Program-made: the position numbers and the translations under genes
Origin: Thermoplasmata archaeon
Lineage (GTDB): Archaea > Thermoplasmatota > Thermoplasmata > Lutacidiplasmatales > UBA184
Direction: 5' to 3'
DNA: 64,000 nucleotides
Assembly: GCA_021823345.1 (NCBI GenBank)
Contig: JAKAOF010000001.1
Coordinates: 120,174-184,173 of the forward strand
The notes under the pieces: generated by a model
Database searches by the model: none
What the model was told of the DNA's origin: nothing
The model's input: only the letters and a program-made list of their open reading frames with translations
Part shown: positions 1-16,580 of the stretch, piece after piece
How the letters are laid out: the number at the start of each line of letters is the position of its first letter
Position numbering within the stretch: the first letter of the stretch is position 1

Positions 1-103
1 TGCGAACGAAATGGCCCTCGCCTTCTTCGGAAAGCTCGCCGGAACAGTGACAGAACAGCTTTCCTGTTTGGAGCTGCTGATGGATCTCCAACCCCACTTT
101 CAT
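1..103 (-). CDS. gatE: Glu-tRNA(Gln) amidotransferase subunit E, N-terminal fragment (continues past the window edge)
   Basis: The reverse complement of 1-103 reads MKVGLEIHQQLQTGKLFCHCSGELSEEGEGHFVR, the conserved GatE/GatB-type N-terminus. Its ATG (103-101) overlaps the gatD stop TGA (102-100) as ATGA. Confidence 0.75.
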   Translation of the reverse strand, partial: MKVGLEIHQQLQTGKLFCHCSGELSEEGEGHFVR

Positions 104-1434
104 GAGGTTCCCCCCTTGAGGGGACGTCGGTCGCCCATTTCCCCGGCCATGTCCTCCAGCATCTGCTCACGGATCCCGCGGGTCCCCTGCGTTCGACCGA
201 GCACCCAGAGCAGCTTCACGTAGGCCGTTTCCGGTGCCAGGTCTTCCAGGTAGACCGCTCCGGCGGACATGAGCTCCCGGCCCCGAGAGTAGACGTACGG
301 GTCCACCTCCCCTTCCAAGCATTGGGTGGTGATCCCGACGAAGACCCCCTGCTCCGTCAGCCCCCGCACCCAGGGGACGAGTTCAGATGGCATGTGCCCC
401 ATCCCGGTGGCGGCCACGATCACGCCACGGGCCCCCTGGCAGAACGACTCCGCTGTGGCCGCGCCGAGTCCCGGAGTGATCCACACGAGCCGGCCCCGCG
501 TGTCGAAGCCCTTCTCCAGAACGATGCCGGCGGATGAGCGCGGACGGTGAGTGGAATTCAGATGGACCCCTGAATCGTCCACCACTCCCAACCGGACACC
601 GTTCAAGGTCCGGAACGCGTCTCGACGGGTGGAGTGCATCTTGCGTACTCGAGTTCCCCGATGAATCGCCCCCACGTCGTCCGACGGGCCCGCATGCATG
701 ACCACCACGACCTCGCCCAATTCCGCCTCCCGGGCGACGCGTACGGCCCAATGCATGTTCTGGATCCCGTCCGAAGATGGCCGATCGATGGAACGTTGGG
801 CTCCCACCAGTACCACCGGTCCGGGAAGGTTCCTCAGCTGGAAAGAAAGCGCAGAGGCCGTATGGGCGAGCGTGTCGGTACCGTGGGAGATCACGATCCC
901 CCGGGCCCCTTCCAAGAAGGTCTCGTGGACGGCCTCCGCCAATCCTTCCCAGTGGGTGGGTCCGATGTCTTCGCTCAGGACATCGAAGACCTCTCGCATC
1001 ATGATGTCCTTCGCCCCCTCCGGGAAGAGGGCATCCAGCGCAGCGGTCCCACGGACCGGCTTCACCCCTCCCGTAGCATAGTCGATGGACGAGGCGATGG
1101 TGCCGCCGGTCGTGAGGAGAGCGATGGACCCCTTCGGGATCGACGTGTCCCTGGTTGAATTGTCCGACCGGGGAACCGCGGAGAAGTCCCCTCCCAACAC
1201 GCCTGGGAGCTTCTCAAAACGCTCGACTTCCCGGATGAGAAGCCCCACGTTGTACCCCGAAGCGAGCTTGAGGCGCAACGATTCTGGGGGAGCGTAGGGA
1301 TCTCTCGGAAGGAGCCATCCCTCCCACTCCCTGCTTCCACGTCGAAGTATCTTCACATGCGTGCCGGGAGGCAGGGCGCTCAGCTGAGCTCCGATGTCCT
1401 CTGCCCCCTTCTCTTCCCCCCCCATGAAAAGCAC
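100..1434 (-). CDS. gatD: Glu-tRNA(Gln) amidotransferase subunit D (asparaginase-like)
   Basis: 444 aa ORF with asparaginase-type motifs (TTGGTIAS, ISHGTDTL) and a GatD N-terminal domain. It sits immediately upstream of gatE. Start is GTG at 1434 or ATG at 1425. Confidence 0.9.
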   Translation of the reverse strand: MLFMGGEEKGAEDIGAQLSALPPGTHVKILRRGSREWEGWLLPRDPYAPPESLRLKLASGYNVGLLIREVERFEKLPGVLGGDFSAVPRSDNSTRDTSIPKGSIALLTTGGTIASSIDYATGGVKPVRGTAALDALFPEGAKDIMMREVFDVLSEDIGPTHWEGLAEAVHETFLEGARGIVISHGTDTLAHTASALSFQLRNLPGPVVLVGAQRSIDRPSSDGIQNMHWAVRVAREAELGEVVVVMHAGPSDDVGAIHRGTRVRKMHSTRRDAFRTLNGVRLGVVDDSGVHLNSTHRPRSSAGIVLEKGFDTRGRLVWITPGLGAATAESFCQGARGVIVAATGMGHMPSELVPWVRGLTEQGVFVGITTQCLEGEVDPYVYSRGRELMSAGAVYLEDLAPETAYVKLLWVLGRTQGTRGIREQMLEDMAGEMGDRRPLKGGTS

Positions 1435-1765: not shown

Positions 1766-4357
1766 ATGAGCTATCATGGCTCATGGGTCTCGAACGAATC
1801 CTACGTTCCCCTCTCTCTCGCGTTTCTCCTCGGCTTGATCACACTCTTGGCCACCCAGTCCTTCTTGCCAACCATCTCGGAATCTTCGGCCGATCGCCCA
1901 TCGCCTTATGCCTCCCACCAGGGTCCCGCGCAGTCTCCCTCGGCCCTTCCCGCGGTAGGTGCGAGCACCCTTCGAGGTATCGACGTCTCACAATACCAGA
2001 AGACTCCGTCCTGGGGGAGCGTGGCGGGGAGTGGAGTCGTGTTCGCGTTCGCGCGTGCCGTGGCCTACTACGGGCAGAACGACCCCGACTTCGGCTACGA
2101 CATGTCGAATGGCCACGCGGCAGGGGTGTATATGGGCGCTTACGACTTCGTCTATCCTTCGTACGAGTCGGCTTCGGGCGACGCCGACTACTTCAACGGC
2201 GTCATCAAGCCCTACGTCAGCGCTGGCTACATGTATCCCGCGCTCGACCTCGAGGAGGATTGCGTGGCCTCCGGGGGCAGCATGAGCGCCTCGCAGATCA
2301 CCGCTTGGGTGAATGCCTGGGCCACGGAACTCCAAAAGGACCTGGCCAGTGACGGATACCCCGGGGTGAACCCGATCATCTACATGAACAGCAATTACGC
2401 CTCCAATTGCATCACTTCCGCCATCGGAGGATGGCACGTGTGGATCGCGGACTACTGCGGTTGCGGAGCCCCGAGCACCGGCATATTCGGCTACTGGAAC
2501 TACTGGCAGTATACCAGCAGCGGCTCGGTCAACGGCATCTCCGGGAGCGTCGACATGGATCTCTTTGCCGGCACGCTGTCCAACCTCCAATCGGGGTTCC
2601 TCTTCGGCGGAGCGCCTTTGACGGCAAGCTACTCTGTGCAGGATACGACCTCGGGGAGCCCCCTGTACTGTGGAGGTACGTTTTACACGGGCGACACGAT
2701 CAGATTCCAGGGCTCGGCCTCCGGGGGCTCCGGAGGTTACTCCTATGCCTGGAACTTCGGGGATGGGACGAGCGGGACTGGAAATCCGGCGAGCCACGTT
2801 TACACGAAGACGGGGACGATCGATGCCATCCTCACCGTGACGGACTCGAGCGGCGGTTCGAAGCAAACGGGCAGTGGGTGCCCCTTCACCGTGAGCCAGG
2901 GGCTCGCGATCGCATCCCCCCTGGCGGTCTCACCGAACCCCGTCATCGTGGGGAACGTGACGACCTTCTCCATATCCGCTAGTGGCGGGGCCACACCGTA
3001 CTCGTACTCCTATTCCGGGCTTCCCCCGGGTTGCAGCTCCTCCAGCACGAACTCCCTTTCGTGCACTCCCAATACGGTCGGGAACTACCAGATCACGGTG
3101 ACCGTGACCGACGCCCAAGGGCGAAAGGTCACCTCGACGACCTCCCTCGTCGTGCGCCCGACCCCGCTCGTCATCGCGGCCTTCTTGGCCACTCCGTCGA
3201 GCTTGATGGTCAACAACAGCACCACCTTCACGGTCCGACCCTCCGGCGGACTGCCGCCGTACTCGTTCTCGTTCACGAGCCTCCCCCCCGGGTGTGTGTC
3301 CGCCAACGTGGCCTCCCTCACGTGCGCCCCCAACACCATCGGCTGGTACACGGTGTCCGTCCAGGTCAATGATAGCTATGGCCAGACCCAGCGAGCCAAC
3401 ACCACGATCGACGTCACGCCCCGTCCGGTGGTCATCAGCGCCTTCACCGCGATGCCTTCGATCGTGATGATCGGCAACAACACGACCCTTCAGGTGAACT
3501 TCACCGGAGGACTGGGGCCGTACTCGTATTCCTACGAGGGGCTGCCCGCTGGGTGCGATACGCACAGTCTTCGCGTGTTGCTCTGCACTCCCTTCCAGTC
3601 TGGCGCCTTCACCGTCACGGTGATCGTCAACGACTCCCAAGGTAGGGCCGCCGTCGCCACCACCAATCTGACGGTGCAAGAGGGACTCACCGTATCGTCG
3701 TTCGTGGCCACTCCCGCTCTTATCAAGCAGGGGCAGAGCAGCACACTTACGGTGGACGTGACCAGCGGGATCGCCCCGTACTCCTACTCTTACCTCCAAC
3801 TTCCCCCCGGGTGCAAGAGCACCAATACTTCCTCCCTGGTATGCACTCCGACCCGCGCCGGCACCTACCACCTGATCGCTCTGGTCAGGGACTCGATGGA
3901 CCGGCTCGGGAGCTCCGTACTCACGCTCACCGTGATCGCCCCGATCACGATCCTTTCCTTCTCGGCATCTCCCACGCTCGTGACCGTGGACGAGCAATCG
4001 ATACTGACCGTCCAAACCACGGGCGGGTCATCCCCCCTCAAGTACACCTACACCGGGCTGCCGACGGGCTGCGTGAGTGCATCCGTGACCACTCTGGCCT
4101 GTACTCCTTCCGGCGCCGGAAACTTCACCGTCACGATCACCGTCACCGACTCGCTGGGGGACCAGGCGTTGAGCACGGTCAAGATCACCGTGGAGCCCGC
4201 CTACCTCGCTTCGCATCCGGCGAGTTCCCCGCTCTTCAGCCCCCTCGCGCTCGCCCTCGTCGGTCTCGGGGTCATCGTACTGGTCGGCCTGGCGCTGTGG
4301 ACCCGGCGCCGGAGACAACGCGCCGCCGAAGCCACCAAGGACAACCCCGCTTCGTGA
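1766..4357 (+). CDS. Membrane-anchored GH25 muramidase (lysozyme) with PKD domain, five Ig-like stalk repeats, C-terminal TM helix and basic tail
   Basis: 863 aa with an N-terminal hydrophobic signal. GH25 signature GIDVSQYQ (1976-1999) and ALDLEED D-x-E motif (about 2246-2260). PKD unit YAWNFGDGTSG...HVY. Five ~86 aa repeats follow, then TM LFSPLALALVGLGVIVLVGLALW and an RRRRQR tail. Confidence 0.85.
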   Translation: MSYHGSWVSNESYVPLSLAFLLGLITLLATQSFLPTISESSADRPSPYASHQGPAQSPSALPAVGASTLRGIDVSQYQKTPSWGSVAGSGVVFAFARAVAYYGQNDPDFGYDMSNGHAAGVYMGAYDFVYPSYESASGDADYFNGVIKPYVSAGYMYPALDLEEDCVASGGSMSASQITAWVNAWATELQKDLASDGYPGVNPIIYMNSNYASNCITSAIGGWHVWIADYCGCGAPSTGIFGYWNYWQYTSSGSVNGISGSVDMDLFAGTLSNLQSGFLFGGAPLTASYSVQDTTSGSPLYCGGTFYTGDTIRFQGSASGGSGGYSYAWNFGDGTSGTGNPASHVYTKTGTIDAILTVTDSSGGSKQTGSGCPFTVSQGLAIASPLAVSPNPVIVGNVTTFSISASGGATPYSYSYSGLPPGCSSSSTNSLSCTPNTVGNYQITVTVTDAQGRKVTSTTSLVVRPTPLVIAAFLATPSSLMVNNSTTFTVRPSGGLPPYSFSFTSLPPGCVSANVASLTCAPNTIGWYTVSVQVNDSYGQTQRANTTIDVTPRPVVISAFTAMPSIVMIGNNTTLQVNFTGGLGPYSYSYEGLPAGCDTHSLRVLLCTPFQSGAFTVTVIVNDSQGRAAVATTNLTVQEGLTVSSFVATPALIKQGQSSTLTVDVTSGIAPYSYSYLQLPPGCKSTNTSSLVCTPTRAGTYHLIALVRDSMDRLGSSVLTLTVIAPITILSFSASPTLVTVDEQSILTVQTTGGSSPLKYTYTGLPTGCVSASVTTLACTPSGAGNFTVTITVTDSLGDQALSTVKITVEPAYLASHPASSPLFSPLALALVGLGVIVLVGLALWTRRRRQRAAEATKDNPAS
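2903..4198 (+). repeat. Tandem array of five ~86 aa Cys-pair Ig-like (He_PIG/PKD-like) coding repeats
   Basis: Units at aa 380-467, 468-554, 555-640, 641-726 and 727-811. Each carries GG..PYSYSY.GLPPGC.S.N..SL.C.P...G.Y.V.V.V.D..G. Confidence 0.8.
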
Positions 4358-4490: not shown

Positions 4491-4515
4491 CCCCCGGAGA
4501 TAACAATCCTTGCGA

Positions 4516-7500
4516 ATGCGCGGATATCCATCGGTCTTGGCGAGGAACCACCCGCTCCCCGCGCTCGCCTTGGTGCTCCTTCTATCACTCCCTTCGGGGG
4601 CCGCTTGGGTCGGGCCTCATTCCCCCGCGGTTCGAGGACCAGCGGCACCGTTCTTGCCTCGCGGGGCCTTTCTCAATCGGAACGTAAGCTTCTCCGGAAA
4701 CCTCGGGTTGGATTTCGGGGGAGGACCGCTGTATCAGAACACCAACGCCTCAGCCTGGGGGGCGGGCAATGCCCTTCTGGGCCTCTACGCCGCCTACAAC
4801 CGAAGCGACCTCTTTCTCGGTATTCAGGAGAACATTACGGGAAACAGTCTCATGGTCTTCGTGGGAGGCGAGGGAGTCGGCGGGATGGGTACCTTCAATC
4901 TCTCGGGCCTCAACGCGTGGTCCCGGTCGATCACCTTCACTTCTCCCGTAAGCGACATCGCGGCCCTCTATTTCGGAGGGAACAACATCAACGTCTCGGG
5001 GTACGGGGTGTACCAGGTCCTCACCCCCCCCTCGGACAGTAACTCCACGCCCAGCGACCGCATGGTGTCTTCGACACATCTCTTCTCCGCCGTCAACGGC
5101 TCGGTGGAGATCGCGCTGCCGATCGCCTCCGTCTTTCCCTCCAATCCGTCTCCCCAGGAGAACCTCACCCTGGGGGCGTTTGTCGTGGGGAGTTCGGGCT
5201 CGTGGGTCGGCACGGGCATCCCCTTCCCCCAGGCTGGAAAATACAATGCGGGAGGTACACAGACGAGCTTCCTCGTGAACGATACGCTCCGGCTTCCCCT
5301 CGCGGGCCTTCCCGTCTCGCCGTCCCAGCCCATCAATGTGGCGATCGTCTTCAACGATCACCAACCGGTCTACGAGGTCGCCGGCCAAGCGACCTACAAC
5401 CTGCCCTGGACCGAAGCCCATGCCACCGCGGAGTACATCGAGCAACCCCTCCTGCTCCGCCAGTATCCGGGCATCAACATCACCTACGAGCTTTCCGGGT
5501 CCCTGCTTTGGCAATTGGAGAACATCTCGACCGATCCTGGTTTCAATGACTCCTTCATCCAGGGAGCTTTCCTCCCGTACTCGCAGCTCAACACCACCCA
5601 GAACCAGACCCTCCTCTCCAATCTTACCTCGGACTACTTCAGCGTCCCCGGCTATGTCTATGATTTCAACGAGACGGCCTCCCGGACCTATCGCCAACTC
5701 GAGACGCAGTGGTCCTCCGGGAAACCCCTCAACGCCTCACAGTTCGAGGACGCCAAGGTGCTTTGGTTCCTCTATGAGGTCAGCACGGACCTCGTCGAAG
5801 GGCGCTTGGGAAGTTCATGGATCTCCCCCTCCCTCTGGGCCCTCCACAACCAGTCCTCGTTCACCCAGTCGGACCTAAAGACCATCCTCCAGTACAGCCA
5901 GTGGCTCACCGGCCAGGTGATCCCCGCCTTCCGCTCCGTGATGCTCGGGAATCAGACGGGATCGGACAATACGGAGCTCTTCACGAGCCCCTTTTACCAC
6001 CCACTGACCCCCTTGCTCCTTACCCCCTCGATCTCGGGTCCCTCCGGTTCCCTCACGAAGGGGGTCTACACCTCGGACGTCCTCGCTCAGATGAATTTGA
6101 GCCGAGACCAGTTTGACCAGATCTTCGGGCAGTACCCCCGTGGGCTCTACGCTTCCGAGGCCGCCGTTTCGGAGGCGATGGTGCCCCTTGTCGCAATGTC
6201 CGGCGCCCAGTGGACCGCGACGGATGAATGGACCTTGCAGCAGTCGGGAGTTCCCGCATCGGCGTGGGGGGACCCCTCTCACACGGTCGCCTCCCTGGAG
6301 GACCTCTACACTCCCTACGTCGTGCAAGACGCGAACGGCACCTCCACCATCATGCTGTTCCGCGATGCCCCGCTGTCGAACGCCTGGGCCTTCAACTACG
6401 GCAATCAGAACACGACCACCTCCGTATCGGACATCGTGAATTACCTCAAGGCGATCAACGGGGCGATTCCGGTGGGGGATCACCCGCGGACCCTGGTCAC
6501 CCTGATGCTTGACGGGGAGAACTGGCAGTTCATGTCCCCCTTCGCGGACGATGGGATCCCCTTCCTGGAGGCGCTCTACCGCGCGCTCGAACAGAACCGG
6601 AGCTACCTGCACACGGTGACCCCGAGCCAGTTCCTCGACTCGCTTCGCGGTCAGCCATGGTTGCTGCCATCCCTCGGTGCGGTCGCGACCGGGACCTGGA
6701 ACCAGGGGAGCGGTTCCTCCGCCCCGGACCAGTCCAATCCCTCGCTCACCCAATGGTCGGGGTACCCGGCCCAGGATTGGATGTGGCAGGATCTCGATAC
6801 CGTCCGGCAACAGGTCGTACAATTCCAACAGCGATGGGGGCTCACCCAGCTCGAGAACCTCACCGCCTTTGACCGGAACCTGACCGCCTCCACCCTCGAA
6901 GGGAACCTCACCCGGGCATGGTACGGCATCTACAACGCGGAGGGCAGCGACTGGTACTTCCAGATGGCCCCTTGGACCATCTCCGGTGCCAACACGGCAC
7001 CCTTCAACGCGACGTTCCAAGGTGACCTGGCATACGCGCTGTCCCAACTTCATCCGATCTTGACCCCTCCTTCGATCACGGCGTTCACCGCATCTCCGAA
7101 CCCGGTACCGGTGAACGGGACCTCTCGGCTCGACGTGAGCGTGAGCGGGGGCGTAGCGCCGGTGAGCTTCCAATACGCGGGGCTTCCGCCGGGTTGCCAC
7201 AGCGCGGATTCCTCCGTCCTCAACTGCACGCCGACCTCGGCCGGGAACTTTACCCTCCGAGTGTACGCGAACGATTCCCTCGGTCATTCCGCGAACGACT
7301 CTTTGCTTCTTTCGGTAACGCCACGCAATTCGCTCGTGTCCGTGGCCATCACTCCTTCCCAGGCGTCGATATTCCCTCTCCGTAGCGAGAACTTGACGGC
7401 TACCGCGTTGTGCTCGGGCGCCCCCACCCCTTGCCCGTCCGGGCTCACCTACACTTGGAGCACGTCCAATGCCCTCGGGACCGTGATACCCTTCGCGAAC

Positions 7501-8355
7501 GGTACCGCCCGATTCGTGGCGGGCAATCTCTCGGGAAACACTTCGGTCACCGTGACGGCCCGTCTCAACGGGACCAACCGGACGAGCGCCCCCGCCTTCC
7601 TCACGGTCCTCCCGCTCGCCCCTCCGATCTCGGTGAAGGCGTCTGCTTCGGTGCTCTCCGGGACCACCCCGCTCCCGGTCAACTTCACCTCGTCGATCTC
7701 GGGGGGAACTGCCCCGTTCTCCACCGTGTGGACCTTCGGGGACGGGAAATCCTCGCTCGTCCCCGACCCCGCCCACACCTATGTCCGAGGGGGTCGTTAC
7801 ATCGTGAACCTCTGGGTGAACGACTCCTCACTTCCCTCCCCCCAGCGATATCATGCGACCTTGGAGATCAACGTCACCGGCCTTTCGGTCACCCTCTCCC
7901 CGATCGCTGAGATCGCACTGGGCGGAACGATCCAGATCACCGCGGTGGTCTCGGGCGCGGTGGGGGCCGTGACGTACCAGTGGACGACCTTGCCTCCAGG
8001 TTGCACGGGCGGCAACCTGAGCCAGATCAGTTGCATTCCCTCCCGGGTGGGTTCCTTCCCTATCCAACTGAACGTCACCGATAGCGCCGGCCAGACGGCG
8101 AGCGGCAACACTTCCGCCGCGGTCCGGCCGCCGCCGAGCTGTGGCTGCGTGGGCCCCGCCGCTCCCTCGCCGGTCATCTGGGCGGCCCTTGGGGTCGCAG
8201 CGGTCGCGTTCCTCATCGGGGTTTACGTGCTCCGGTCAAGGTCCCGGCACCGGGGCGGTTCGCCCAAGAATGACGCGCCCGCCTCCCGGACTCCGGAGGA
8301 GAGCGTTTCCAAGAAGGCGCCGGAACCCGAGCCCCCCGGGCCGTCACGGTCTTAA
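4516..8355 (+). CDS. Membrane-anchored GH57-like alpha-glucan hydrolase with N-terminal sugar-binding-like domain and Ig-like/Big_2/PKD stalk
   Basis: Signal peptide PALALVLLLSLPSGAAW. GH57-type motifs: IVFNDHQP (HQP at 5359-5367), LYASEAAVSE (Glu at 6157-6159) and LMLDGENWQF (6511-6522). The C-terminal part has a GLPPGC..C.P repeat, a Big_2-like unit, a PKD unit (WTFGDGKS) and a second GC..C repeat, then a TM and basic tail. The ORF track starts at TTG 4510. ATG 4516 is preferred. Confidence 0.7.
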   Translation: MRGYPSVLARNHPLPALALVLLLSLPSGAAWVGPHSPAVRGPAAPFLPRGAFLNRNVSFSGNLGLDFGGGPLYQNTNASAWGAGNALLGLYAAYNRSDLFLGIQENITGNSLMVFVGGEGVGGMGTFNLSGLNAWSRSITFTSPVSDIAALYFGGNNINVSGYGVYQVLTPPSDSNSTPSDRMVSSTHLFSAVNGSVEIALPIASVFPSNPSPQENLTLGAFVVGSSGSWVGTGIPFPQAGKYNAGGTQTSFLVNDTLRLPLAGLPVSPSQPINVAIVFNDHQPVYEVAGQATYNLPWTEAHATAEYIEQPLLLRQYPGINITYELSGSLLWQLENISTDPGFNDSFIQGAFLPYSQLNTTQNQTLLSNLTSDYFSVPGYVYDFNETASRTYRQLETQWSSGKPLNASQFEDAKVLWFLYEVSTDLVEGRLGSSWISPSLWALHNQSSFTQSDLKTILQYSQWLTGQVIPAFRSVMLGNQTGSDNTELFTSPFYHPLTPLLLTPSISGPSGSLTKGVYTSDVLAQMNLSRDQFDQIFGQYPRGLYASEAAVSEAMVPLVAMSGAQWTATDEWTLQQSGVPASAWGDPSHTVASLEDLYTPYVVQDANGTSTIMLFRDAPLSNAWAFNYGNQNTTTSVSDIVNYLKAINGAIPVGDHPRTLVTLMLDGENWQFMSPFADDGIPFLEALYRALEQNRSYLHTVTPSQFLDSLRGQPWLLPSLGAVATGTWNQGSGSSAPDQSNPSLTQWSGYPAQDWMWQDLDTVRQQVVQFQQRWGLTQLENLTAFDRNLTASTLEGNLTRAWYGIYNAEGSDWYFQMAPWTISGANTAPFNATFQGDLAYALSQLHPILTPPSITAFTASPNPVPVNGTSRLDVSVSGGVAPVSFQYAGLPPGCHSADSSVLNCTPTSAGNFTLRVYANDSLGHSANDSLLLSVTPRNSLVSVAITPSQASIFPLRSENLTATALCSGAPTPCPSGLTYTWSTSNALGTVIPFANGTARFVAGNLSGNTSVTVTARLNGTNRTSAPAFLTVLPLAPPISVKASASVLSGTTPLPVNFTSSISGGTAPFSTVWTFGDGKSSLVPDPAHTYVRGGRYIVNLWVNDSSLPSPQRYHATLEINVTGLSVTLSPIAEIALGGTIQITAVVSGAVGAVTYQWTTLPPGCTGGNLSQISCIPSRVGSFPIQLNVTDSAGQTASGNTSAAVRPPPSCGCVGPAAPSPVIWAALGVAAVAFLIGVYVLRSRSRHRGGSPKNDAPASRTPEESVSKKAPEPEPPGPSRS

Positions 8356-8379: not shown

Positions 8380-9327
8380 ATGTCCGAGCGGAATTCCGGC
8401 AAGCCGAAGGAACGCGATGTGATCTCGATCGTCGACCTCTCCGCCGACCTCGAGGGCCTCTTCAAACGAGCGAAAGAGCTCAAGGCGCTCCGCCGGAAGC
8501 ATGCTCCCCACCGGAGCTTCGAGGGCCGTGCCCTCGCCATGATCTTCGAGAAGCCCTCCACCCGCACGCGCAGCTCCTTCGAGCTCGCCATGACCGACCT
8601 CGGCGGCCACGCCGTCTACCTTTCACCGAAGGACATGCAGCTGGGACGGGGCGAGACGGTCGCCGACACGGCCCGGGTGCTCTCGCGCTACTACGACGCC
8701 ATCATGTATCGGGCGTTCCGGCATGAGGACATGCTGGAGCTGGCCAAGTGGGCCGACATCCCGGTGATCAACGGGCTCGACGACATCGAGCATCCGTGCC
8801 AGGCCGTTGCGGACCTGTTCACGCTCTGGGAACGCTGGGGCGGGAAGTTCACCTCGCACCAGCTGACGTACATCGGGGACGGCAACAACGTCCTCAATTC
8901 CCTGATGCTCGGCGCCGCGACCGTCGGGCTCAATTTTGTGGCGGCGACCCCTCCCGCCTACAAGCCCAAGCCGTGGGTGATGAAGCGGGCGGAAAGCCTG
9001 GCGCTGGCCAAGGGGTCCATCGTCCGCGTGGTGACGAGCCCCGAGGAGGCCGCCAAGGGCGCGGATGCCCTCTACACGGATGTCTGGGTATCCATGGGGG
9101 ACGAGGCCGAGGAAAAGCAGCGGATGGCCGCGTTCAAGGGCTACCAGATCAATGCCGCGCTCCTCGCACGGGCCAACCCGGGCGCCTTTGCCATGCACGA
9201 CCTCCCCGCCCACCGAGGGCTCGAGATCACCGACGAGGTCATGGACGGGACCGCCGAAGCGATCTGGGACCAGGCGGAGAACCGCCTCCACGCCCAGAAG
9301 GCTATCCTCGAGCTCGTGCTTTCGTAA
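8380..9327 (+). CDS. argF: Ornithine carbamoyltransferase
   Basis: STRTRSSFE carbamoyl-phosphate motif, HPCQ, DVWVSMG, and LPAHRG.E near the C-terminus. ATG is at 8380, one codon after TTG 8377. Confidence 0.88.
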   Translation: MSERNSGKPKERDVISIVDLSADLEGLFKRAKELKALRRKHAPHRSFEGRALAMIFEKPSTRTRSSFELAMTDLGGHAVYLSPKDMQLGRGETVADTARVLSRYYDAIMYRAFRHEDMLELAKWADIPVINGLDDIEHPCQAVADLFTLWERWGGKFTSHQLTYIGDGNNVLNSLMLGAATVGLNFVAATPPAYKPKPWVMKRAESLALAKGSIVRVVTSPEEAAKGADALYTDVWVSMGDEAEEKQRMAAFKGYQINAALLARANPGAFAMHDLPAHRGLEITDEVMDGTAEAIWDQAENRLHAQKAILELVLS

Positions 9328-10961: not shown

Positions 10962-11747
10962 CTACGAGGTCCCGAACGAGGGTCCGAGCGCTTCGCGGTC
11001 CTTCTTGGACAAACGGACGATGACCAGGCTCGAGGGGATGATATCGAAGCCGCGCTCGGTGGAATCTCCCCGGATGCGGACCGCCATGTTGGGGGGGAGC
11101 CCTGAGACATCGATGGCCTGTCCGTCCTGGTGCCAGCGATCGACCACGGTCTTGAGCGCTTGATCGACCGAGACGCCCTTGGTCTTGTAGAGTACACTGA
11201 CCTGGACCACCTTCTTCTCATCGACATCGTAGAGCGCGACCGGGGTCGCGGTCAGGAGTTCGTCCTCTTCGTGCTTCTTGACCACTTGGTCGAGGAGTCC
11301 TTGCAGGGTCGCGAGCTCCGTCGTCTTCTCCTGAAGCTTCTGGGCCAGCTGGGCGATCGCGAGCTTGATGGTGGTCATCTCGTTCGCGTGGGTCTGCGCG
11401 AGACTCTTCACCTCATCGTGGGAATGCTCGGGCAGTTCGTGCTCGTGGGCCGGGATGTCCCCATCCGTGTCTCCTGAGTCGGCGTCCCCCGATCCATTCG
11501 TGGTGGCGCGTTCCGGAAGAGGGGGGGCAGACTCCGTCTTCCGAGGAGGCAGCTCCTTGTCGGAGATCCACATCGGGACCGAGGTATCTGGCGCATCGGG
11601 ATTGCGCGGTGGGGGGGTCGGAAGCGGCACGTTGTGCAGCCGGTTCCGATGGACAGCGAGGATCTTGAGGGGAACGACCTGGCCACACTCCGGGCACCAT
11701 ACATTCTCCGGTTGTTGGGAGTAATTCCCCCCGGGATAGCTGTCCAT
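10962..11747 (-). CDS. Hypothetical protein: N-terminal zinc-ribbon-like CPEC, acidic/His-rich linker, coiled coil, C-terminal globular domain
   Basis: 261 aa ORF with GC3-rich codon usage. Contains WCPECGQVVPL..H..RLH, a heptad-like segment (IKLAIAQLAQKLQEKTTELATLQGLLDQVVKKHEE), and a C-terminal beta-rich region. I recognised no family. Confidence 0.55.
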   Translation of the reverse strand: MDSYPGGNYSQQPENVWCPECGQVVPLKILAVHRNRLHNVPLPTPPPRNPDAPDTSVPMWISDKELPPRKTESAPPLPERATTNGSGDADSGDTDGDIPAHEHELPEHSHDEVKSLAQTHANEMTTIKLAIAQLAQKLQEKTTELATLQGLLDQVVKKHEEDELLTATPVALYDVDEKKVVQVSVLYKTKGVSVDQALKTVVDRWHQDGQAIDVSGLPPNMAVRIRGDSTERGFDIIPSSLVIVRLSKKDREALGPSFGTS

Positions 11748-11942
11748 TCCAGCTGCGCCAGAGAGAGAAAGGAGAAAAGGCTACCGCCATCGGCACCCAC
11801 GGGGTCCGGATCGGACCGTTCGGACCCTTTTTCTGGACCGAGCGAAAGGAAAGAACCAAATAGTTCGCTATCCCTGTGGATGAACTGGGGACACGAATTC
11901 CACACGGCCCATTTCAAGTGGACTAAGGCGCTACGATCAAAG

Positions 11943-14900
11943 ATGGTTTCGCGATCGCTGTCACTGCGGATTGGACCCCCCCCTGGCGTGGGCCCTGGGT
12001 CGCGTAAACTCCTCGCATCCGGTCGGAACCGCTACTCCGCTTGGGTCTGGTTGTGTATCGCGATCACGGCAAGTCTCAGCGTGACCGGGTTGCCCGTGGG
12101 GTTCAACGGACTCGGGAACCCCGGGGCGACGCTCGCCGCACCGACGTTGTATGACGGCCCCGCGGTCCCATTGCCGCACGTCAATCGGGCTTCTAGCTCG
12201 GACCTGCGCTCGACCCTGAGATCGCCGCTCGGCATCCCGCTGACCACGCGCGCTTCCACCGCTTACGAGGTCGGCACTCCCGTCGAGGTCAGTCCTTTGT
12301 CCATTGGTGGGGGCGCCAAGTCGAACTATGTGGCCAACTGCGCCGTCTACGACCCGAACAGCGGGAACATTTTCTTTGCGAATGGGGCCGCGAGCACCAT
12401 CGCGGTCTTCAACACCACGACGGACCTGCAAACCAGCAGTTTTGTTGTCGGTAACCGGCCCTGTGCGCTGGCGTTCGATAACACGACCGGTGTCCTGTAT
12501 GCCGGCGATAGCGGTGTGGGTTACGTCTACGAGATCAACCCGACCACCGGGGCGGTTCTTACCCAGATAGCGGTTCCGAGCCAGGTGGGGGGTTTGGCGT
12601 ACGACTATGCGAATGATACGCTGTTCGTCACCATCTCGGGAACCAATGAGATGGTCGTGGTCAGCACCGTCACTCAGGCGGTGGTAGCGACCCTGGGAAG
12701 TGGAAATCGCCCGGTAGGGGTCGCCTATGACCCGGCGGACAATTATGTGTATGTTGCCAACTCCGGGACCAATAACGTCTCGGTGGACAATGCAACGACC
12801 TACCGGCTGGTCACCAATGTTAACCTTGGCCTTACTCCGAACGATGTCATCTACGATCCGCAGAACCAATCGGTCGTCGTATCGGTCCCCCAGTCGGGTC
12901 AAATCATTCTGCTCCATGGTATAGCGGCCATCACCTACTCAGGAGGCTCGTTCCAACCGGGACAGATGGCCTGGGACCCGGTCAACCAACTCCTCTACCT
13001 AACTCCCTATTCTGGCGCACCGGGCTCGGGCCTTGAGGCACTGAACATCTCGAGTGGCGCGTTCATCTCGCTCGGTCAGAGCTGGGGCAACTCCCCGTAC
13101 TTTCCCGCGGTGGATCCCTCGACCGGGGAACTCTTCGACTATTCGAGCGGCATAGCACGAGTACTCGTCGTCTCGACGGTGCTTCACCTCGGCACGCCCA
13201 GTGTGGCCTTCAGTGGGATCTCCACGACCGGGTCCGGTGTGACCAATCTGACCAGCGTGCCCTCTCCTTACGGGCTCGCCTACAACCCGGGCAGTTCCAT
13301 GGCGTACGTCTCAGATTACTCGAATGCGACTGTCAGTGCCTACAATCTGACGACCAATGCGCTGGTCTTCCGCGCAAGTACGGGAAGCTCCCCTGTGGGA
13401 GTCGCCTTCGACCCCACGGCGGGAGAGATTTTCGTCGCCAATTCCGGGTCGGCCACTTTTACCAAGATGAACGCAGCCACCGGGGCGAGTCTAACGACCT
13501 ATGGGGTTTGGCCGAACCCCCTCTCCGTCGTGTATGACGAGGCTCGGGGGTACGTGGAGGTAGCCAACAACAACAACGTGACGATCTTCAACTCCAGCGA
13601 ATCCTTGACACTATCTCGAATTCAAACCGGATACCCCGACCCGTACGGGGAGACGATCGATGGAGCGTCCGGGATGCTGATCGTCGCAAGCTGCACGCCG
13701 ATCGGTGGCGTGCTAACCATCGTCAACCCTGCTCCGCCTTCGGCGGGGAGCGTGATGGGGGTGGGCAGCTGCGACACGGCCATCACCTACGACCCCGCCA
13801 ACGGAGACCTTTACGTGGCGGATGAAGCCTCGGGTCAGGTGGATGTTGTCGGAGGGGTCAATTACACGCTCATCGATCATATCCCGGTGGGCTTGAAGCC
13901 TCTCGGGGTCGCCTACGATCCGGCCAACGGCTACGTCTACGTGGCCAACGCCGGATCTGGCACGATCAGCGTCATCAACGACCTCTCGCAGTCCGTGATC
14001 TCCACCATCTCCGTGGGAGGGTCGCCGCAGTCCGTCGCCTTCGCATCGCGGAGCGCATCGATCCTCGTGACGAATCCCGCGTTCTCCTCCCTGCAGTCCG
14101 TTCCGTCGGAGAAGGATATCGTCCCCGCAACCTCGAACGTATTTGACGTGGGCAGGAGCGCAACGTTCACGGCCCCGCTTCCCGAAGAAGGCGCCGGCCG
14201 CCTCCGCGAGTCCCTTTCCGTAACCCCTGGATATGGCCTCATCTGTCAGGTGGAGTCGCCGGGCCATGCGCTCTTGCCCTTCACGTGCACGGGGAACACC
14301 AGCGGGAATTACACCGTGGACCTCACGGTGAACGATAGTGTCGCAACGGTCGTTTCTTCGGTGAACGTCACGGTGGCTCCATTACCATCCGAGGGGCCGA
14401 TCACCGCCTCCCCCCCTTCCATCGATCTCAACAACGCTTCGGTCACCTTCAGCGCCTCCCCGATCGGCGGGACACCCCCCTACACCTTCCGGTGGACCAC
14501 CGCGAATGCCACGCTCGTCTGCCCGGGATCGACCAGCGTGACGCTCTCCTGCTTACCCACGGCCGCAGGGAACTTCACCGTGACCACCGGTTTCATGGAC
14601 GCCGATGGCGTGTACAGTGGGAATGTGTCCACGGTCTACCAGGTCTTCCCGCGCCCGGCCGTGACCCTGTCGGAGTCCGCTTCTGCGATCGATGTGGGCC
14701 AAGCCGTCAATTTCACGGCGGTGGCCACCCTCGGGAACGGCATCTACCACTACACGTACTCCGGACTCCCGACGGGATGCCTTACCTCGAACGTTTCGAC
14801 CCTTCCCTGCCTTCCGACCCAGTCGGGGAACTTTTCAGGGATCACGGTCAGGGTACGCGACACTTCGGGCGGTGCCAATCTGTCCTCGCCCGTCAACCTC

Positions 14901-16580
14901 ACGGTGTACCCCCGCCCTCAGATCGTGCTCTTCCGCGCCGTACCCGCGAACGACTCGGTGGGGGTCGGCATGAGCTTCGCCGTGATCGCGACCGGAGGCG
15001 AAGCCCCGTACTCGTACGCGTATTCGGGGCTTCCCGCGGGATGTAACTCGGTCGATACGGGACAGCTTAACTGTACTCCGAGCGCAACGGGCACCTACAA
15101 CGTCTCCGTCCTGCTGAAGGATTCGCTCGGGGAAACTTCCCTGGGGTATGCCCTCCTCACGGTCTATTCGCTTCCCGTGGTCAGCGGCTTCCACATCCTT
15201 CCGGACCCCGTGGTCGCCGGCCAGGCGGTCGCGCTCTCGTCCTCGATCTCCGGTGGAACCCCCCCGTATTCCCTTTCCTATACTGGGCTGCCGCTCGGTT
15301 GCCTGACGGAGAACCTCGCGAACTGGACCTGCACCCCGGTCGCCGCCGGGAATTATTCCATCACGTTGTCCGTGGTAGACGGCCGAGGTTCGACCACGTC
15401 CGCTCAGGCGCCGCTCACGGTGACCCCTCAGTCCGGGGGCCCGGTCATCACCTCCTTCGTGGCCACGCCCAACCCCGTCGGCCAGGGGACGAACACCACG
15501 ATCCGCACCACCGTCAGCGGCGGGAAGGCACCGCTTTCCTATCTCTATTCCGGGCTCCCGCCCGGGTGTTACGACACGAACGCGAGCGCGATCTCCTGCG
15601 CTCCCACCTCCCCTGGGAACTACTCGATCTCGGTCCTCGTGCGGGATACCTTGGGGCGGCTCGCCCACGGGAACCTCTCCCTCGAGGTACTTTCGAGCGG
15701 GAAGGTCACTCCGCCGACCGTCACCTTGGTCAGTAGCGGTGCCACGATAACCGCCGGTGGAACGGTCAATCTTACGGCCCAGGTCACGGGCGGGCTCGGG
15801 CCGTTCCGGTACGCCTGGTCCCTCAACGGGACGAACGTCTCTACGGCCCCCGATGCCCCGCAATGGTCCGAGGCGCTCGCCCATCCGGGAACCTATCAGT
15901 TCCGCTCCTGGGTCGTAGATGGACGGGGACAGGCCGCCGGGAGCAACACCGTGACGGTCTCGGTGGTCGCCAAGGCGCCGACCACAACTTCCCAGAACGC
16001 TCTCGCGTTCAACACGTGGATCTACGTGATCATCGGCGCCGTGGTGATCCTGGCCATACTCCTCCTCCTGTTCCGGCGGCGGAAGGCCGGCCCGGCCGAC
16101 CGCTCCGCCGACCGTCATGGGGTTCGGGACTCGGATGCGGGCACTTCGGCAGAGAGCGCTCCTTCGCCTCCGGGAACTCCTCCCTCCTCGCCCGTGCCGG
16201 GGTCTTCCTCCGACCCCATCGCTGCCGGCTCCCCGGTGGCCGAATCCGCGCTTCCGTCACCCACACCGTCGCTCGACGACGTCGAGGAGGCCCGGAAGAA
16301 GCGGATCTCCGTCATCGGGCTCACCGAGTGCCCCCTGTGCCGGGTCGCGCTCCCCCAAGACATGAAGTGCCCCCAATGTGGCATGGACTGGAGCCCCAAG
16401 CCGGCGGGATCCTCCTCCGGGGCGAGTTCCACCGCCCCCTCCGGCTCAGAGAGCTCGGTGGCGAAGGAACCCGCGGGCGGAACGGGGTCCTCCGCTCCCT
16501 CGAGATCTCCCGACGACATCGAGGAAGAACTTCGCCGGGCGGAAAAGCGCATCCGGGACCGGAAGGAATCCCCACCGTAA
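11943..16580 (+). CDS. Giant surface protein: YVTN-type beta-propeller repeats, Ig-like stalk repeats, TM helix, cytoplasmic tail with zinc ribbon
   Basis: Repeated P.GVAYDP.....YVAN.G.N.VSV units (YVTN beta-propeller repeat pattern). Five to six GLP.GC..C.P repeats plus a PKD-like unit. TM WIYVIIGAVVILAILLLLF (16017-16073). The tail carries CPLCRVALPQDMKCPQCG (16329-16382). The ORF track start 11634 overlaps the divergent gene, so ATG 11943 (MVSRSLSL) is preferred. Confidence 0.8.
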   Translation: MVSRSLSLRIGPPPGVGPGSRKLLASGRNRYSAWVWLCIAITASLSVTGLPVGFNGLGNPGATLAAPTLYDGPAVPLPHVNRASSSDLRSTLRSPLGIPLTTRASTAYEVGTPVEVSPLSIGGGAKSNYVANCAVYDPNSGNIFFANGAASTIAVFNTTTDLQTSSFVVGNRPCALAFDNTTGVLYAGDSGVGYVYEINPTTGAVLTQIAVPSQVGGLAYDYANDTLFVTISGTNEMVVVSTVTQAVVATLGSGNRPVGVAYDPADNYVYVANSGTNNVSVDNATTYRLVTNVNLGLTPNDVIYDPQNQSVVVSVPQSGQIILLHGIAAITYSGGSFQPGQMAWDPVNQLLYLTPYSGAPGSGLEALNISSGAFISLGQSWGNSPYFPAVDPSTGELFDYSSGIARVLVVSTVLHLGTPSVAFSGISTTGSGVTNLTSVPSPYGLAYNPGSSMAYVSDYSNATVSAYNLTTNALVFRASTGSSPVGVAFDPTAGEIFVANSGSATFTKMNAATGASLTTYGVWPNPLSVVYDEARGYVEVANNNNVTIFNSSESLTLSRIQTGYPDPYGETIDGASGMLIVASCTPIGGVLTIVNPAPPSAGSVMGVGSCDTAITYDPANGDLYVADEASGQVDVVGGVNYTLIDHIPVGLKPLGVAYDPANGYVYVANAGSGTISVINDLSQSVISTISVGGSPQSVAFASRSASILVTNPAFSSLQSVPSEKDIVPATSNVFDVGRSATFTAPLPEEGAGRLRESLSVTPGYGLICQVESPGHALLPFTCTGNTSGNYTVDLTVNDSVATVVSSVNVTVAPLPSEGPITASPPSIDLNNASVTFSASPIGGTPPYTFRWTTANATLVCPGSTSVTLSCLPTAAGNFTVTTGFMDADGVYSGNVSTVYQVFPRPAVTLSESASAIDVGQAVNFTAVATLGNGIYHYTYSGLPTGCLTSNVSTLPCLPTQSGNFSGITVRVRDTSGGANLSSPVNLTVYPRPQIVLFRAVPANDSVGVGMSFAVIATGGEAPYSYAYSGLPAGCNSVDTGQLNCTPSATGTYNVSVLLKDSLGETSLGYALLTVYSLPVVSGFHILPDPVVAGQAVALSSSISGGTPPYSLSYTGLPLGCLTENLANWTCTPVAAGNYSITLSVVDGRGSTTSAQAPLTVTPQSGGPVITSFVATPNPVGQGTNTTIRTTVSGGKAPLSYLYSGLPPGCYDTNASAISCAPTSPGNYSISVLVRDTLGRLAHGNLSLEVLSSGKVTPPTVTLVSSGATITAGGTVNLTAQVTGGLGPFRYAWSLNGTNVSTAPDAPQWSEALAHPGTYQFRSWVVDGRGQAAGSNTVTVSVVAKAPTTTSQNALAFNTWIYVIIGAVVILAILLLLFRRRKAGPADRSADRHGVRDSDAGTSAESAPSPPGTPPSSPVPGSSSDPIAAGSPVAESALPSPTPSLDDVEEARKKRISVIGLTECPLCRVALPQDMKCPQCGMDWSPKPAGSSSGASSTAPSGSESSVAKEPAGGTGSSAPSRSPDDIEEELRRAEKRIRDRKESPP
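14393..15705 (+). repeat. Tandem array of about five to six ~86 aa Cys-pair Ig-like coding repeats
   Basis: Successive units contain PYTFRW..., YHYTYSGLPTGC, PYSYAYSGLPAGC, PYSLSYTGLPLGC and PLSYLYSGLPPGC, each followed by ..C.P...GN[YF]. Confidence 0.75.

Follow-up and report, generated by a model that had tools for sequence, protein, structure and literature searches.

The gene at positions 1766..4357 (+ strand) of the window, as we call the whole 64-kb stretch of Thermoplasmata DNA that was analysed, is a complete, uninterrupted ORF of 863 amino acids. It probably encodes, at a likelihood that we put at roughly 60 per cent, a catalytically competent N-acetylmuramidase of family GH25, which is exported, stays attached to the cell and digests bacterial peptidoglycan at the surface, for feeding, killing or both. 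Judged by sequence comparison, the gene is one member of a conserved and previously undescribed archaeal family and not a one-off recent transfer. From the N-terminus onwards, the polypeptide consists of a hydrophobic segment, the GH25 domain, a PKD domain, five Ig-like repeats, a transmembrane (TM) helix and an RRRRQR tail, an order that supports its assignment as an ectoenzyme of type I, tethered to the membrane through an Ig-like stalk. The initial annotation had already placed a PKD unit, five stalk repeats, a TM helix and an RRRRQR tail behind the head. All of these were found by Pfam, repeat alignment and hydropathy analysis, and the proposed positions, 1973-2569 for the head and 4229-4300 for the TM helix, were right to within a few codons. 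The identical protein is encoded on two contigs, one from ENA with a length of 169.7 kb and one from Logan. Its MSYHGS start is common to the orthologues in L008, L009 and L017, and the GC3 of the ORF (0.82) is like that of the neighbouring genes.

The catalytic head occupies aa 67-282 (1964..2611, + strand), as delimited by the profile match to PF01183, the catalytic residues and the predicted fold. The Pfam Glyco_hydro_25 profile (PF01183) scored 93.9 bits (gathering cutoff 27; E 1.9e-26), with a match that spans aa 72-258 and covers profile positions 1-180 of 180. The hallmarks read earlier from the letters, GIDVSQYQ (aa 71-78) and ALDLEED (aa 159-165), were confirmed. Alignment to Cellosyl (1JFX), which had been suggested as a check on the catalytic acids, pairs D73, D161 and E163 (codons 1982-1984, 2246-2248 and 2252-2254, + strand) with Asp9, Asp98 and Glu100, and the three residues are invariant across the 11-member family alignment. 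Among solved structures 1JFX was also the best sequence match (E 1.3e-18). A deviation from the usual pattern is GAYDF, which the family has where GAYHF is common in GH25. Taken together, the sequence data support the head as a genuine GH25 domain in which the catalytic Asp/Asp/Glu are all present. The AF2 model of the head (mean pLDDT 86.8) was compared with known structures by Foldseek, which returned 4KRU (TM 0.84, rmsd 2.3 A), 1JFX (TM 0.79) and 2WAG, 6ZMV and 2X8R (TM 0.78-0.82); the predicted fold matches the beta/alpha-barrel of GH25 lysozymes. Profile searches of the window protein gave no match to SH3, amidase, LysM or PG_binding domains.

The head is followed by a PKD domain (aa 283-378; 2612..2899, + strand; PF00801, 83.3 bits at aa 305-368), which could be aligned in 11 of 11 family members and is conserved with the head as one unit. 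Foldseek related it to collagenase PKD domains (TM 0.79-0.86). The stalk proper (aa 379-810; 2900..4195, + strand), defined by repeat alignment, AF2 and Foldseek, is built of five tandem Ig-like repeats of 86-87 aa, which align without gaps and share 36-45% identity among themselves. Each repeat carries the signature GG-x-x-PY-x-Y-x-Y-x-GLPxGC and, 10 residues later, a second Cys completing a conserved Cys pair. Pfam recognized the repeat by weak PKD and He_PIG matches. The AF2 model, derived from an alignment of 24 repeats, is an Ig-like fold with a pLDDT of 94.6, and its Foldseek neighbours were SraP stalk modules, Rib domains, PKD domains and the archaeal S-layer PKD of 1L0Q. By its modelled structure the stalk is therefore Ig-like and similar to the stalk modules of adhesins and S-layer proteins. 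The stalk holds 12 N-x-S/T sequons, head and PKD domain hold none, and the stalk ectodomain is predicted from this to be N-glycosylated.

At the N-terminus, a segment of hydropathy > 1.6 (aa 14-37; 1805..1876, + strand) is a putative Sec signal peptide, and its cleavage is likewise putative. The n-region of this segment in the window protein is free of Lys and Arg, while family members display classical n/h/c signal regions (for example AHA/Q in P0021 and AYA/G in P0068). If the segment stayed uncleaved, the head would lie near the membrane and not at the tip of the stalk. Between signal segment and head lies a linker rich in Pro, Ser and Ala (aa 38-66; 1877..1963, + strand; sequence composition), the least conserved region of the protein, with 26-31% identity between orthologues. 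At the other end, the TM helix (aa 826-846; 4241..4303, + strand; hydropathy up to 2.69) is followed by a basic, presumably cytoplasmic tail, in which RRRRQR precedes 11 more residues (4304..4354, + strand). The R-rich cluster behind the helix is kept in the family, with tails of up to ~70 aa. Models of sorting signals (PGF-, PEF- and PEP-CTERM, sortase-type) gave no match on the window protein. These features are those predicted of a plain TM anchor with a basic cytoplasmic segment, in keeping with the positive-inside rule, and not those of a terminal sorting signal.

The contig is archaeal, as had been assumed at the outset. It carries GatD, GatE, deoxyhypusine synthase, CDP-archaeol synthase, LonB and archaeosine TGT (ArcTGT), and the named relatives of the SRP54 encoded in the window are all from Thermoplasmata, the nearest being Thermoplasmata MAGs. 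Upstream of the GH25 gene lies gatD, the gene of the archaeal Glu-tRNA(Gln) amidotransferase subunit D (100..1434, - strand; Pfam GatD_N, Asparaginase and Asparaginase_C), which serves as the syntenic anchor of the locus. The next gene downstream (4510..8355, + strand) was predicted to encode a similarly tethered alpha-glucan hydrolase, and this was borne out: its product is a GH57 enzyme on the same type of stalk (PF03065, 196 bits), with a PKD domain, two GLPxGC repeats, a C-terminal hydrophobic segment and RSRSRHR. The start codon of this gene is uncertain; the gene caller on L001 begins 144 nt downstream. The GLPxGC module occurs on two further window proteins, which makes three besides the GH25 protein. 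One is a surface protein with a beta-propeller head, four repeats and a TM helix (11634..16580, + strand; profile and repeat search), and the other is a surface protein with four repeats, a TM helix followed by RRRR and a Pro-rich tail (48928..52704, + strand; repeat search). A gene for a secreted sedolisin-like protease is at 31235-34483. Genes for MurNAc or GlcNAc catabolism were not seen within the 64-kb window.

An exhaustive HMMER search collected 12,634 proteins at E <= 1e-3. At least 8 Thermoplasmata MAGs contain proteins of the type GH25-PKD-stalk-TM, often together with paralogues, and 12 family loci were counted in MAGs of this class. The complete architecture of the window protein, including the C-terminal TM helix, is repeated in P0019-P0023, P0025, P0030, P0033, P0041, P0056 and P0068, among which at least P0019 is labeled at NCBI just as 'PKD domain-containing protein'. 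The adjacency of GatD and GH25 is kept in L009 and L017, the GH25-GH57 pair in L008 (71% identity), and CarS/DS downstream forms a further part of the conserved locus. GatD itself is only ~60% identical across the MAGs that keep the locus. L009 is labeled 'bacterium', yet an archaeal gatD adjoins the GH25 gene there. Within MAGs the paralogues are expanded and the stalks variable; the head and PKD domain sit as a cassette on very different stalks, and L017 is a mosaic of head and stalk. Short forms also occur, namely P0028 (250 aa), which is a Nitrososphaerales copy, and P0027, which has no C-terminal TM helix. Comparison with orthologues identified the head as the most constrained region (85.6% amino acid identity vs ~70% for the stalk), with dN of 0.12 and dS > 1.5, the latter being saturated, values which indicate purifying selection on the head.

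The nearest heads from outside the archaea, at ~44-49% identity over aligned columns, belong to secreted or surface-anchored GH25s of the Verrucomicrobia type, and the closest heads outside the family are found in bacterial proteins with a T9SS tail (PF18962), dockerin (PF00404) or PEP-CTERM. Firmicutes and phage GH25s are ~30% identical to the window head (phage endolysins <= 30%). The family as a whole is embedded among overwhelmingly bacterial GH25s, and in a neighbour-joining tree its monophyly received only a moderate bootstrap of 57/100, so that one or more transfers, in either direction, would fit. The initial annotation had pointed to a horizontal acquisition like that of Aciduliprofundum. 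The presence of GH25 in an archaeon stands, whereas a sporadic recent transfer does not agree with the occurrence in at least 8 MAGs, the synteny, the native codons and the Verrucomicrobia-type relatives. In particular, the comparison of codon usage proposed for detecting a foreign head found a native composition, as the GC3 of the head (0.824) lies inside the range of housekeeping genes (0.76-0.89) and its codon usage is also within range. Because the family is conserved, the locus syntenic, the composition native and the head under purifying selection, we favour an ancient date for any bacterial origin of the head, with subsequent vertical inheritance and paralogy. The head-PKD unit would have been gained long ago, probably from a bacterial lineage of secreted or surface-anchored GH25s, then fused to native stalk and anchor modules, inherited vertically and duplicated in a clade of Thermoplasmata. 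A vertically inherited archaeal clade acting on pseudomurein or some other substrate had been named at the outset as a possible counter-finding; vertical inheritance does fit the data, but nothing points to such a substrate, and pseudomurein is confined, as far as known, to Methanobacteria and Methanopyri (PMC12352652).

The GH25 protein of Aciduliprofundum boonei (B5ID12 / WP_008084055) is bactericidal by experiment, a nutritional role has also been raised, and in a set of 323 archaeal genomes it was reported to stand alone (Metcalf et al. 2014, eLife; PMC4241558). Its architecture is SH3_3+Amidase_6+GH25 (PMC12352652, S2 table), and its nearest relatives are from Paenibacillaceae (~43% identity). 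The two cases share a GH25 of apparent bacterial ancestry in a member of the Thermoplasmatota without murein. In contrast to B5ID12, which was compared by its published description, the window protein is devoid of a wall-binding domain and has a PKD/Ig stalk and a TM tether, and its family is conserved and syntenic, with nearest relatives outside the archaea that are of the Verrucomicrobia and not of the Firmicutes type. The survey of Strock et al. (2025, PLoS Biol) demanded a catalytic domain together with a recognized cell-wall-binding domain (PMC12352652). Its Thermoplasmatota GH25 entries are of the Aciduliprofundales type only, and the surveyed hydrolases are said to be patchy in distribution, often located on plasmids and subject to frequent gain and loss (PMC12352652). 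The window protein fits the concept of the survey, in which archaea, with Thermoplasmatota prominent among them, produce exported enzymes against bacterial peptidoglycan, but the window family is chromosomal and syntenic. The term 'PKD' is absent from the main text and from 12 supplementary files of the survey, including the domain list, and transmembrane anchoring goes unmentioned in the main text (PMC12352652). As the window protein combines GH25 with none of the listed wall-binding domains, it falls outside the survey's definition of a modular hydrolase, and the survey would have filtered the family out because a canonical wall-binding domain is lacking.

Among enzymes of solved structure, Cellosyl (Streptomyces coelicolor muramidase M1, 1JFX) and the catalytic domain of the phage phiSM101 endolysin (4KRU) share the fold of the window head, and Cellosyl shares the catalytic residues, but both are small soluble or wall-binding proteins with 24-28% identity to the head in structural alignments. 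GH25s of Verrucomicrobiota, Planctomycetota and Bacteroidia (P0181 and P0194 of Pedosphaera parvula, the PEP-CTERM protein P0034, the T9SS-tailed P0178) resemble the window protein in possessing an export or surface-anchor module and in standing outside an endolysin or autolysin context. Their anchors, however, are PEP-CTERM/exosortase, a T9SS C-terminal domain or dockerin, without a GLPxGC stalk or a type-I TM anchor. The stalk repeat shares its Ig-like/PKD-like beta-sandwich with the S-layer YVTN-PKD protein of Methanosarcina mazei (1L0Q; TM 0.72 to the PKD domain), and a sister protein in the window has a beta-propeller head, as found among archaeal surface-layer proteins. Unlike in those proteins, the distal head is a glycoside hydrolase, and the repeat has a GLPxGC and Cys-pair signature of its own, weakly detected by Pfam.

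How the protein is exported, cleaved and oriented in the membrane, what it acts on and what it does for the cell are inferred as follows. The N-terminal Sec-type signal would direct export, and the C-terminal TM helix with its positive cytoplasmic tail would provide anchoring. Ig-like domains are usually ~4 nm long; assuming this length per domain, the PKD domain and five N-glycosylated Ig-like domains would hold the enzyme ~20-25 nm off the membrane. To our knowledge, Thermoplasmata make neither murein nor pseudomurein, which is why we take the substrate to be bacterial peptidoglycan touching the cell surface. It may come from bacteria nearby, mainly Gram-positive ones, whose walls are exposed, or from wall debris. 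A tethered enzyme would be unable to reach the murein of intact Gram-negative cells, and this counts against the reading, as do the want of a recognized peptidoglycan-binding module, the absence of genes for MurNAc or GlcNAc catabolism from the 64-kb window, the n-region free of Lys and Arg, and GAYDF. Since several hydrolases and binding heads, including the adjacent GH57, share the lineage-specific stalk, the role that we favour is polymer digestion at the surface, that is grazing or necromass feeding, with lysis of bacteria as a means or a by-product.

Killing and feeding cannot be separated by sequence alone. A tethered muramidase that serves primarily as a weapon, killing competing bacteria on contact with nutrition secondary, is in our opinion unlikely. 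The idea was proposed before for the Aciduliprofundum GH25 (PMC4241558) and for halobacterial M23 peptidoglycan hydrolases (PMC12352652), so that bactericidal archaeal peptidoglycan hydrolases have precedent; paralogue expansion and variable stalks within MAGs would also suit it, and the L017 mosaic resembles the shuffling typical of arms-race proteins. However, such hydrolases are reported to be patchy and often plasmid-borne, whereas the window gene is chromosomal, located by gatD and conserved across MAGs with GatD only ~60% identical, and its partner at the locus is a tethered hydrolase of nutrient polymers, the GH57. We regard as speculative, and as distinctly doubtful in its full extent, an extension of surface digestion in which a clade of Thermoplasmata would be contact-dependent grazers of bacteria. 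A 'toolbelt' of hydrolases (GH25, GH57, proteases) on interchangeable stalks would open bacteria and digest wall, storage glucan and protein, and the GH25-PKD cassette would recombine between stalks and even archaeal phyla (e.g. P0028). If true, this would amount to a counterpart, among archaea, of epibiotic predation.

The enzyme might instead act on its producer's own surface glycans or on a chitin-like or other beta-1,4-linked amino-sugar polymer, in surface remodelling or glycan scavenging. The missing peptidoglycan-binding module, GAYDF in place of GAYHF as the possible mark of an altered subsite, and the deep embedding of the protein in the archaeal surface proteome would fit this assignment. 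It is nevertheless very unlikely, since the full catalytic triad and the predicted fold are conserved and the closest relatives outside the family are all bacterial GH25s of the lysozyme type. As far as we know, lysozyme (muramidase) is the only activity characterized for GH25 in CAZy. Digestion of peptidoglycan at the end of a lasting tether also has to be weighed against shedding, in which proteolysis, for instance at the low-complexity linkers, would release the ectodomain or the head with the PKD domain as a free lysozyme. The occurrence of the conserved cassette on very different stalks, the short forms P0028 and P0027 and the secreted proteases encoded nearby (such as the sedolisin-like one) are compatible with it. 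But TM helix, R-cluster and tail are present in nearly all members, and together with the stalks, which are long, conserved, predicted to be glycosylated and under purifying selection, they would be a costly route to a soluble enzyme; with no conserved cleavage motif evident, we find shedding hardly probable. Chimeric assembly or mis-binning of a bacterial gene into an archaeal contig, which the 'bacterium' label of the related contig L009 might suggest, is effectively ruled out by independent assembly, synteny and native codon usage: the gene lies within a 169.7-kb contig, between housekeeping genes of archaea, and a second dataset yielded it by an independent assembly, L009 itself carries an archaeal gatD beside the gene, several MAGs share the synteny, GC3 and codon usage are native, and the stalk repeat is common to three other window genes.

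Archaeal enzymes that attack bacterial walls have been recognized only recently, a single case dating from 2014 and a survey from 2025, and those known so far are soluble, equipped with wall-binding modules and patchily distributed. The family described here represents a different solution, a muramidase without a wall-binding module, predicted to be anchored by a long stalk in the membrane of the cell that makes it. Its existence means that surveys based on domain filters undercount archaeal peptidoglycan hydrolases. If the enzymes are active, some Thermoplasmata would process bacterial walls at their own surface, with a bearing on archaeal-bacterial interactions and on the turnover of bacterial necromass, and lysozymes suited to the habitats of these archaea might be obtained from the family.

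The GH25 gene (1766-4357, + strand) is an unbroken ORF of 863 aa with a GC3 of 0.82, as in the adjacent genes, and the identical protein also occurs in a 169.7-kb ENA metagenome contig and in a separately assembled Logan contig. In Pfam, Glyco_hydro_25 matched aa 72-258 over the whole profile (93.9 bits, E 1.9e-26; gathering score 27), and a PKD domain was found at aa 305-368 (83.3 bits). The motifs quoted in the initial annotation, GIDVSQYQ and ALDLEED, lie at aa 71-78 and aa 159-165, and its description of the architecture was right to within a few codons. Among solved structures the top match was Cellosyl, the Streptomyces coelicolor muramidase (1JFX, E 1.3e-18). In the alignment with 1JFX, from which the numbering is taken, D73, D161 and E163 fall on the catalytic Asp9, Asp98 and Glu100 of Cellosyl, a correspondence on which the proposed muramidase identity partly hinged, and all 11 aligned family members have the same three residues. 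An AlphaFold2 model of the head plus PKD, built on the 11-member alignment, had a mean pLDDT of 86.8. Its top Foldseek matches in the PDB were GH25 lysozymes only (4KRU, TM 0.84, rmsd 2.3 Å; 1JFX, TM 0.79; 2WAG, 6ZMV and 2X8R, TM 0.78-0.82), and its second domain was matched by collagenase-type PKD domains. The family carries GAYDF where most GH25 proteins carry GAYHF. All GH25 family features that could be tested from sequence or model were present in the window protein; with the profile score, the catalytic residues and the predicted fold in agreement, the assignment to GH25 is confirmed. In comparison with the closest orthologues, conservation was highest in the head (85.6% identity, dN 0.12), whereas the stalk was about 70% identical (dN 0.23-0.24). 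As dS was saturated in this comparison (>1.5), the low dN indicates that the head is under purifying selection.

The stalk (aa 379-810) consists of five gap-free tandem repeats of 86-87 aa with pairwise identities of 36-45%, each with one Cys in a GLPxGC motif and another ten residues further on. A repeat was modelled as a seven-stranded Ig-like sandwich (pLDDT 94.6), whose closest structural matches included the cadherin-like stalk modules of the staphylococcal adhesin SraP, Rib domains, collagenase PKD domains and the PKD of a Methanosarcina S-layer protein (1L0Q); Pfam found the repeats weakly, as PKD or He_PIG. The stalk contains 12 N-x-S/T sequons and the head and PKD domain none, a distribution that would be typical of a glycosylated archaeal ectodomain. 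An N-terminal hydrophobic segment is located at aa 14-37, with a signal n-region without basic residues. At the other end, a strongly hydrophobic helix (aa 826-846) is followed by RRRRQR and 11 residues, as predicted for a membrane-tethered protein. Archaeosortase- and exosortase-type sorting models did not match the C-terminus, and in the family the tails reach up to about 70 residues beyond the Arg cluster; on these grounds the helix appears to anchor the protein permanently in type-I fashion, and not to belong to a sorting signal that is cleaved off.

The stalk repeat recurs in three more large proteins encoded in the window: two copies in the GH57 surface protein (4510-8355), four in a beta-propeller surface protein (NHL/YVTN-like, 11634-16580) and four in a surface protein with an unknown head (48928-52704), which also has a TM helix followed by RRRR. 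The signature of the ~86-aa Ig-like repeat in the four proteins is GG-x-x-PY-x-Y-x-Y-x-GLPxGC-x9-C. Since the repeat is common to all four, stalk plus anchor looks like a native, lineage-wide display module bearing different heads (GH25, GH57, beta-propeller and one unknown). Past its TM helix the beta-propeller protein has RRRK and then some 230 aa of cytoplasmic tail that include a zinc-ribbon-like CPLC...CPQC motif; such a feature is uncommon in a surface protein and may reflect a link to signalling or to the cytoskeleton.

When the head alone was used as query, a word-indexed search returned relatives at 29-39% identity only and suggested an orphan head. This proved to be a sensitivity artefact: an exhaustive HMMER search recovered relatives at 46-68%, all of which the word-indexed search had missed. 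Six of them (P0019-P0023 and P0025) are proteins of 827-1014 aa with N-terminal heads 53-68% identical to that of the window protein, and four (P0027, P0030, P0033 and P0041) have heads 46-50% identical. The close family members were still missing from the results of a profile search against the named database, even with their own sequences in the query alignment. For this clade, 'no close homologue' from a word-indexed protein search should not be trusted. P0019 is listed at NCBI as 'PKD domain-containing protein [Euryarchaeota archaeon]', and P0027 and P0030 at JGI as 'GH25 family lysozyme M1'.

The family members share a plan of signal peptide, GH25 head, one PKD, variable stalk, C-terminal TM helix, Arg cluster and often a Pro-rich tail. 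Head plus PKD can be aligned over its full length throughout the family (mean column identity 64%), and the stalks are made up of GLPxGC repeats (six of the window-protein type in P0021), other Ig-like repeats or FN3-like modules. With the family alignment as query, 19 loci were retrieved from a set of one genome per GTDB species. The best 12 (37-81% identity) were all in Thermoplasmata MAGs save one 3-kb contig labelled only 'bacterium', and spanned at least eight MAGs, with three copies in REEB18 and two in FK3.bin56; the other seven (31-43%) were in Verrucomicrobia, Bacteroidia and Tepidisphaeraceae. In three multidomain proteins with heads about 40-44% identical in the exhaustive search (P0040, of 881 aa, P0046 and P0049), GH25 is accompanied by triple PKD, cohesin/dockerin-like or beta-helix modules and by amidase-like domains. 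Display of GH25 enzymes at the surface may therefore be commoner among uncultured lineages. P0028 (10001-10753 of a 56-kb contig, GCA_035534475.1, which also carries a histone-fold gene) comes from a MAG labelled as Nitrososphaerales and consists of 250 aa, with GH25, a Thr-rich linker and a TM helix. In the neighbour-joining tree it was nested inside the Thermoplasmata family, which suggests either transfer between archaeal phyla or mis-binning. Lineage-specific archaeosortase anchors considered for these proteins, PEF-CTERM in P0028 and PGF-CTERM in P0040, received no support from the NCBIfam models; the sole sorting-signal candidate to pass the cutoff was the PEP-CTERM of the bacterial P0034.

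The archaeal assignment of the host stood up to examination of the window and the extended contig, which encode GatD, GatE, deoxyhypusine synthase, CDP-archaeol synthase (CarS), archaeal LonB, an archaeosine tRNA-guanine transglycosylase with PUA domain, SRP54, archaeal-type PheRS subunits and HTH_10 regulators. SRP54 had hundreds of relatives at 67-83% identity, all named ones being 'Thermoplasmata archaeon' or 'Euryarchaeota archaeon'. The host, an uncultured archaeon of the Thermoplasmata, has a GC content of about 64%. The earlier view that the neighbouring GH57 protein, with its two stalk repeats, is similarly tethered is supported. Its start is ambiguous: the longest ORF, from TTG 4510, gives 1281 aa, the gene call of the source contig begins 144 nt later (4654, 1233 aa) and the Logan call has 1279 aa. 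A large sedolisin-type (S53) peptidase (31235-34483, - strand) combines a hydrophobic segment near the N-terminus and a Lys-rich C-terminus with a pro-kumamolisin activation domain; the protease is probably secreted and active in acid, which fits a peptide- or necromass-feeding lifestyle. A secreted-type M61 peptidase is encoded at 58845-60764. Phosphosulfolactate synthase (ComA, a coenzyme M pathway enzyme; 42691-43680, - strand) occurs here in a non-methanogen-looking Thermoplasmata context, and the protein has a weak MarR-like C-terminal region (24 bits, under the Pfam cutoff of 27). No amino-sugar or muropeptide catabolic genes were found in the 64-kb window.

Gene order around the GH25 gene is conserved. 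On the contig labelled 'bacterium' (JAKBKR010000334.1, MAG DX1.bin10) gatD lies directly upstream of the orthologue, as in the window (100-1434, - strand); head plus PKD is 81% identical and the aligned protein about 73%. The archaeal gatD beside the orthologue indicates that this contig is archaeal and that the bin label is uninformative or wrong. At a second locus, L008, the GH57 gene is directly downstream (71% identity). A third, L017 (MAG YS4.bin60), has gatD upstream of the orthologue (9234-11705) and a homologue of the window gene at 10962, CarS and deoxyhypusine synthase downstream, and its GatD is only 60% identical to that of the window. All four orthologues begin with MSYHGS. Like the window protein, the L017 orthologue has five repeats and the RRRRQR tail, with 51% identity in the head and 59% in the stalk; its head falls in the other subclade of the family, and a second GH25-PKD paralogue lies 1 kb further on (12763-15552). 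The mismatch between head and stalk and the adjacent paralogue suggest that the head was swapped by recombination between paralogues.

A neighbour-joining tree of 300 GH25 domains placed the Thermoplasmata proteins with P0056, P0068 and P0028 in one clade of 23 tips, with P0029/P0032 as sister. Bootstrap values were moderate (57/100 for the clade, 52-65% for the inner groups holding the window protein). The nearest heads outside the family (44-49% identity over aligned columns) were from Verrucomicrobiales or Pedosphaera where named, and many bacterial relatives bear secretion or anchoring modules (T9SS tail PF18962, dockerin PF00404, PEP-CTERM). GH25 being overwhelmingly bacterial, a bacterial origin of the head appears likely. 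The recent, singular acquisition implied in the initial annotation is contradicted by the existence of a Thermoplasmata family, by synteny and by composition: GC3 was 0.824 in the head and 0.843 in the stalk, within the 0.76-0.89 of 13 housekeeping genes, synonymous codon choice of the head also scored inside the housekeeping range, and the flanking genes are housekeeping genes without signs of mobile elements. Any transfer from bacteria would be old; the gene is fully domesticated, with subsequent vertical inheritance and duplication. A phage origin is unlikely, given matches in four of 50,697 phage records at ≤30% identity.

The GH25 protein of Aciduliprofundum boonei was the only archaeal one among 323 genomes in 2014, with Paenibacillaceae as nearest relatives (about 43% identity; Metcalf et al., PMC4241558). 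Modular peptidoglycan hydrolases were later reported in about 5% of archaeal genomes by a survey that required a recognised wall-binding domain; its Thermoplasmatota GH25 entries are only of the Aciduliprofundales type (SH3_3+Amidase_6+GH25), and PKD and transmembrane anchoring are both absent from its main text (Strock et al., PMC12352652). The survey also has GH25 proteins of Altiarchaeota and Hodarchaeales. In the library of papers searched, none had both 'Thermoplasmata' and 'GH25'. Judged by its sequences, the Thermoplasmata family would work in the same way as the known archaeal lysozymes. It differs from them in being self-tethered without a wall-binding module, in a conserved and syntenic rather than patchy distribution, in ancestry and probably in deployment. 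The window protein thus falls outside the Aciduliprofundum type, from which the published architecture and relatives of the A. boonei protein set it apart, and outside the modular hydrolases as surveyed (PMC12352652), having GH25 and no wall-binding module.

In the envisaged arrangement the protein would be exported, the putative signal peptide removed, and the muramidase held at the end of a row of six Ig-like domains, some 20-25 nm away from the membrane by our estimate of about 4 nm per domain. To our knowledge, Thermoplasmata make no murein. With pseudomurein known only in Methanobacteria and Methanopyri (PMC12352652), bacterial peptidoglycan would be the only sensible substrate. Being tethered and devoid of wall-binding modules, the enzyme could reach only what touches the cell, namely exposed Gram-positive walls or wall debris, and a role in contact-dependent attack or feeding, as first proposed, seems a reasonable reading of the sequence. 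We prefer a nutritional role, with digestion at the cell surface (grazing or feeding on necromass) and lysis of neighbours as one possible route to it, in view of the stable inheritance of the gene, its pairing with a tethered GH57 and the secreted-type peptidases in the region (sedolisin-like and M61). A dedicated weapon is less favoured on the same three grounds, although the two roles are not separable by sequence. The family adds a distinct architecture and a testable ecological hypothesis to a recently opened topic and overturns nothing.
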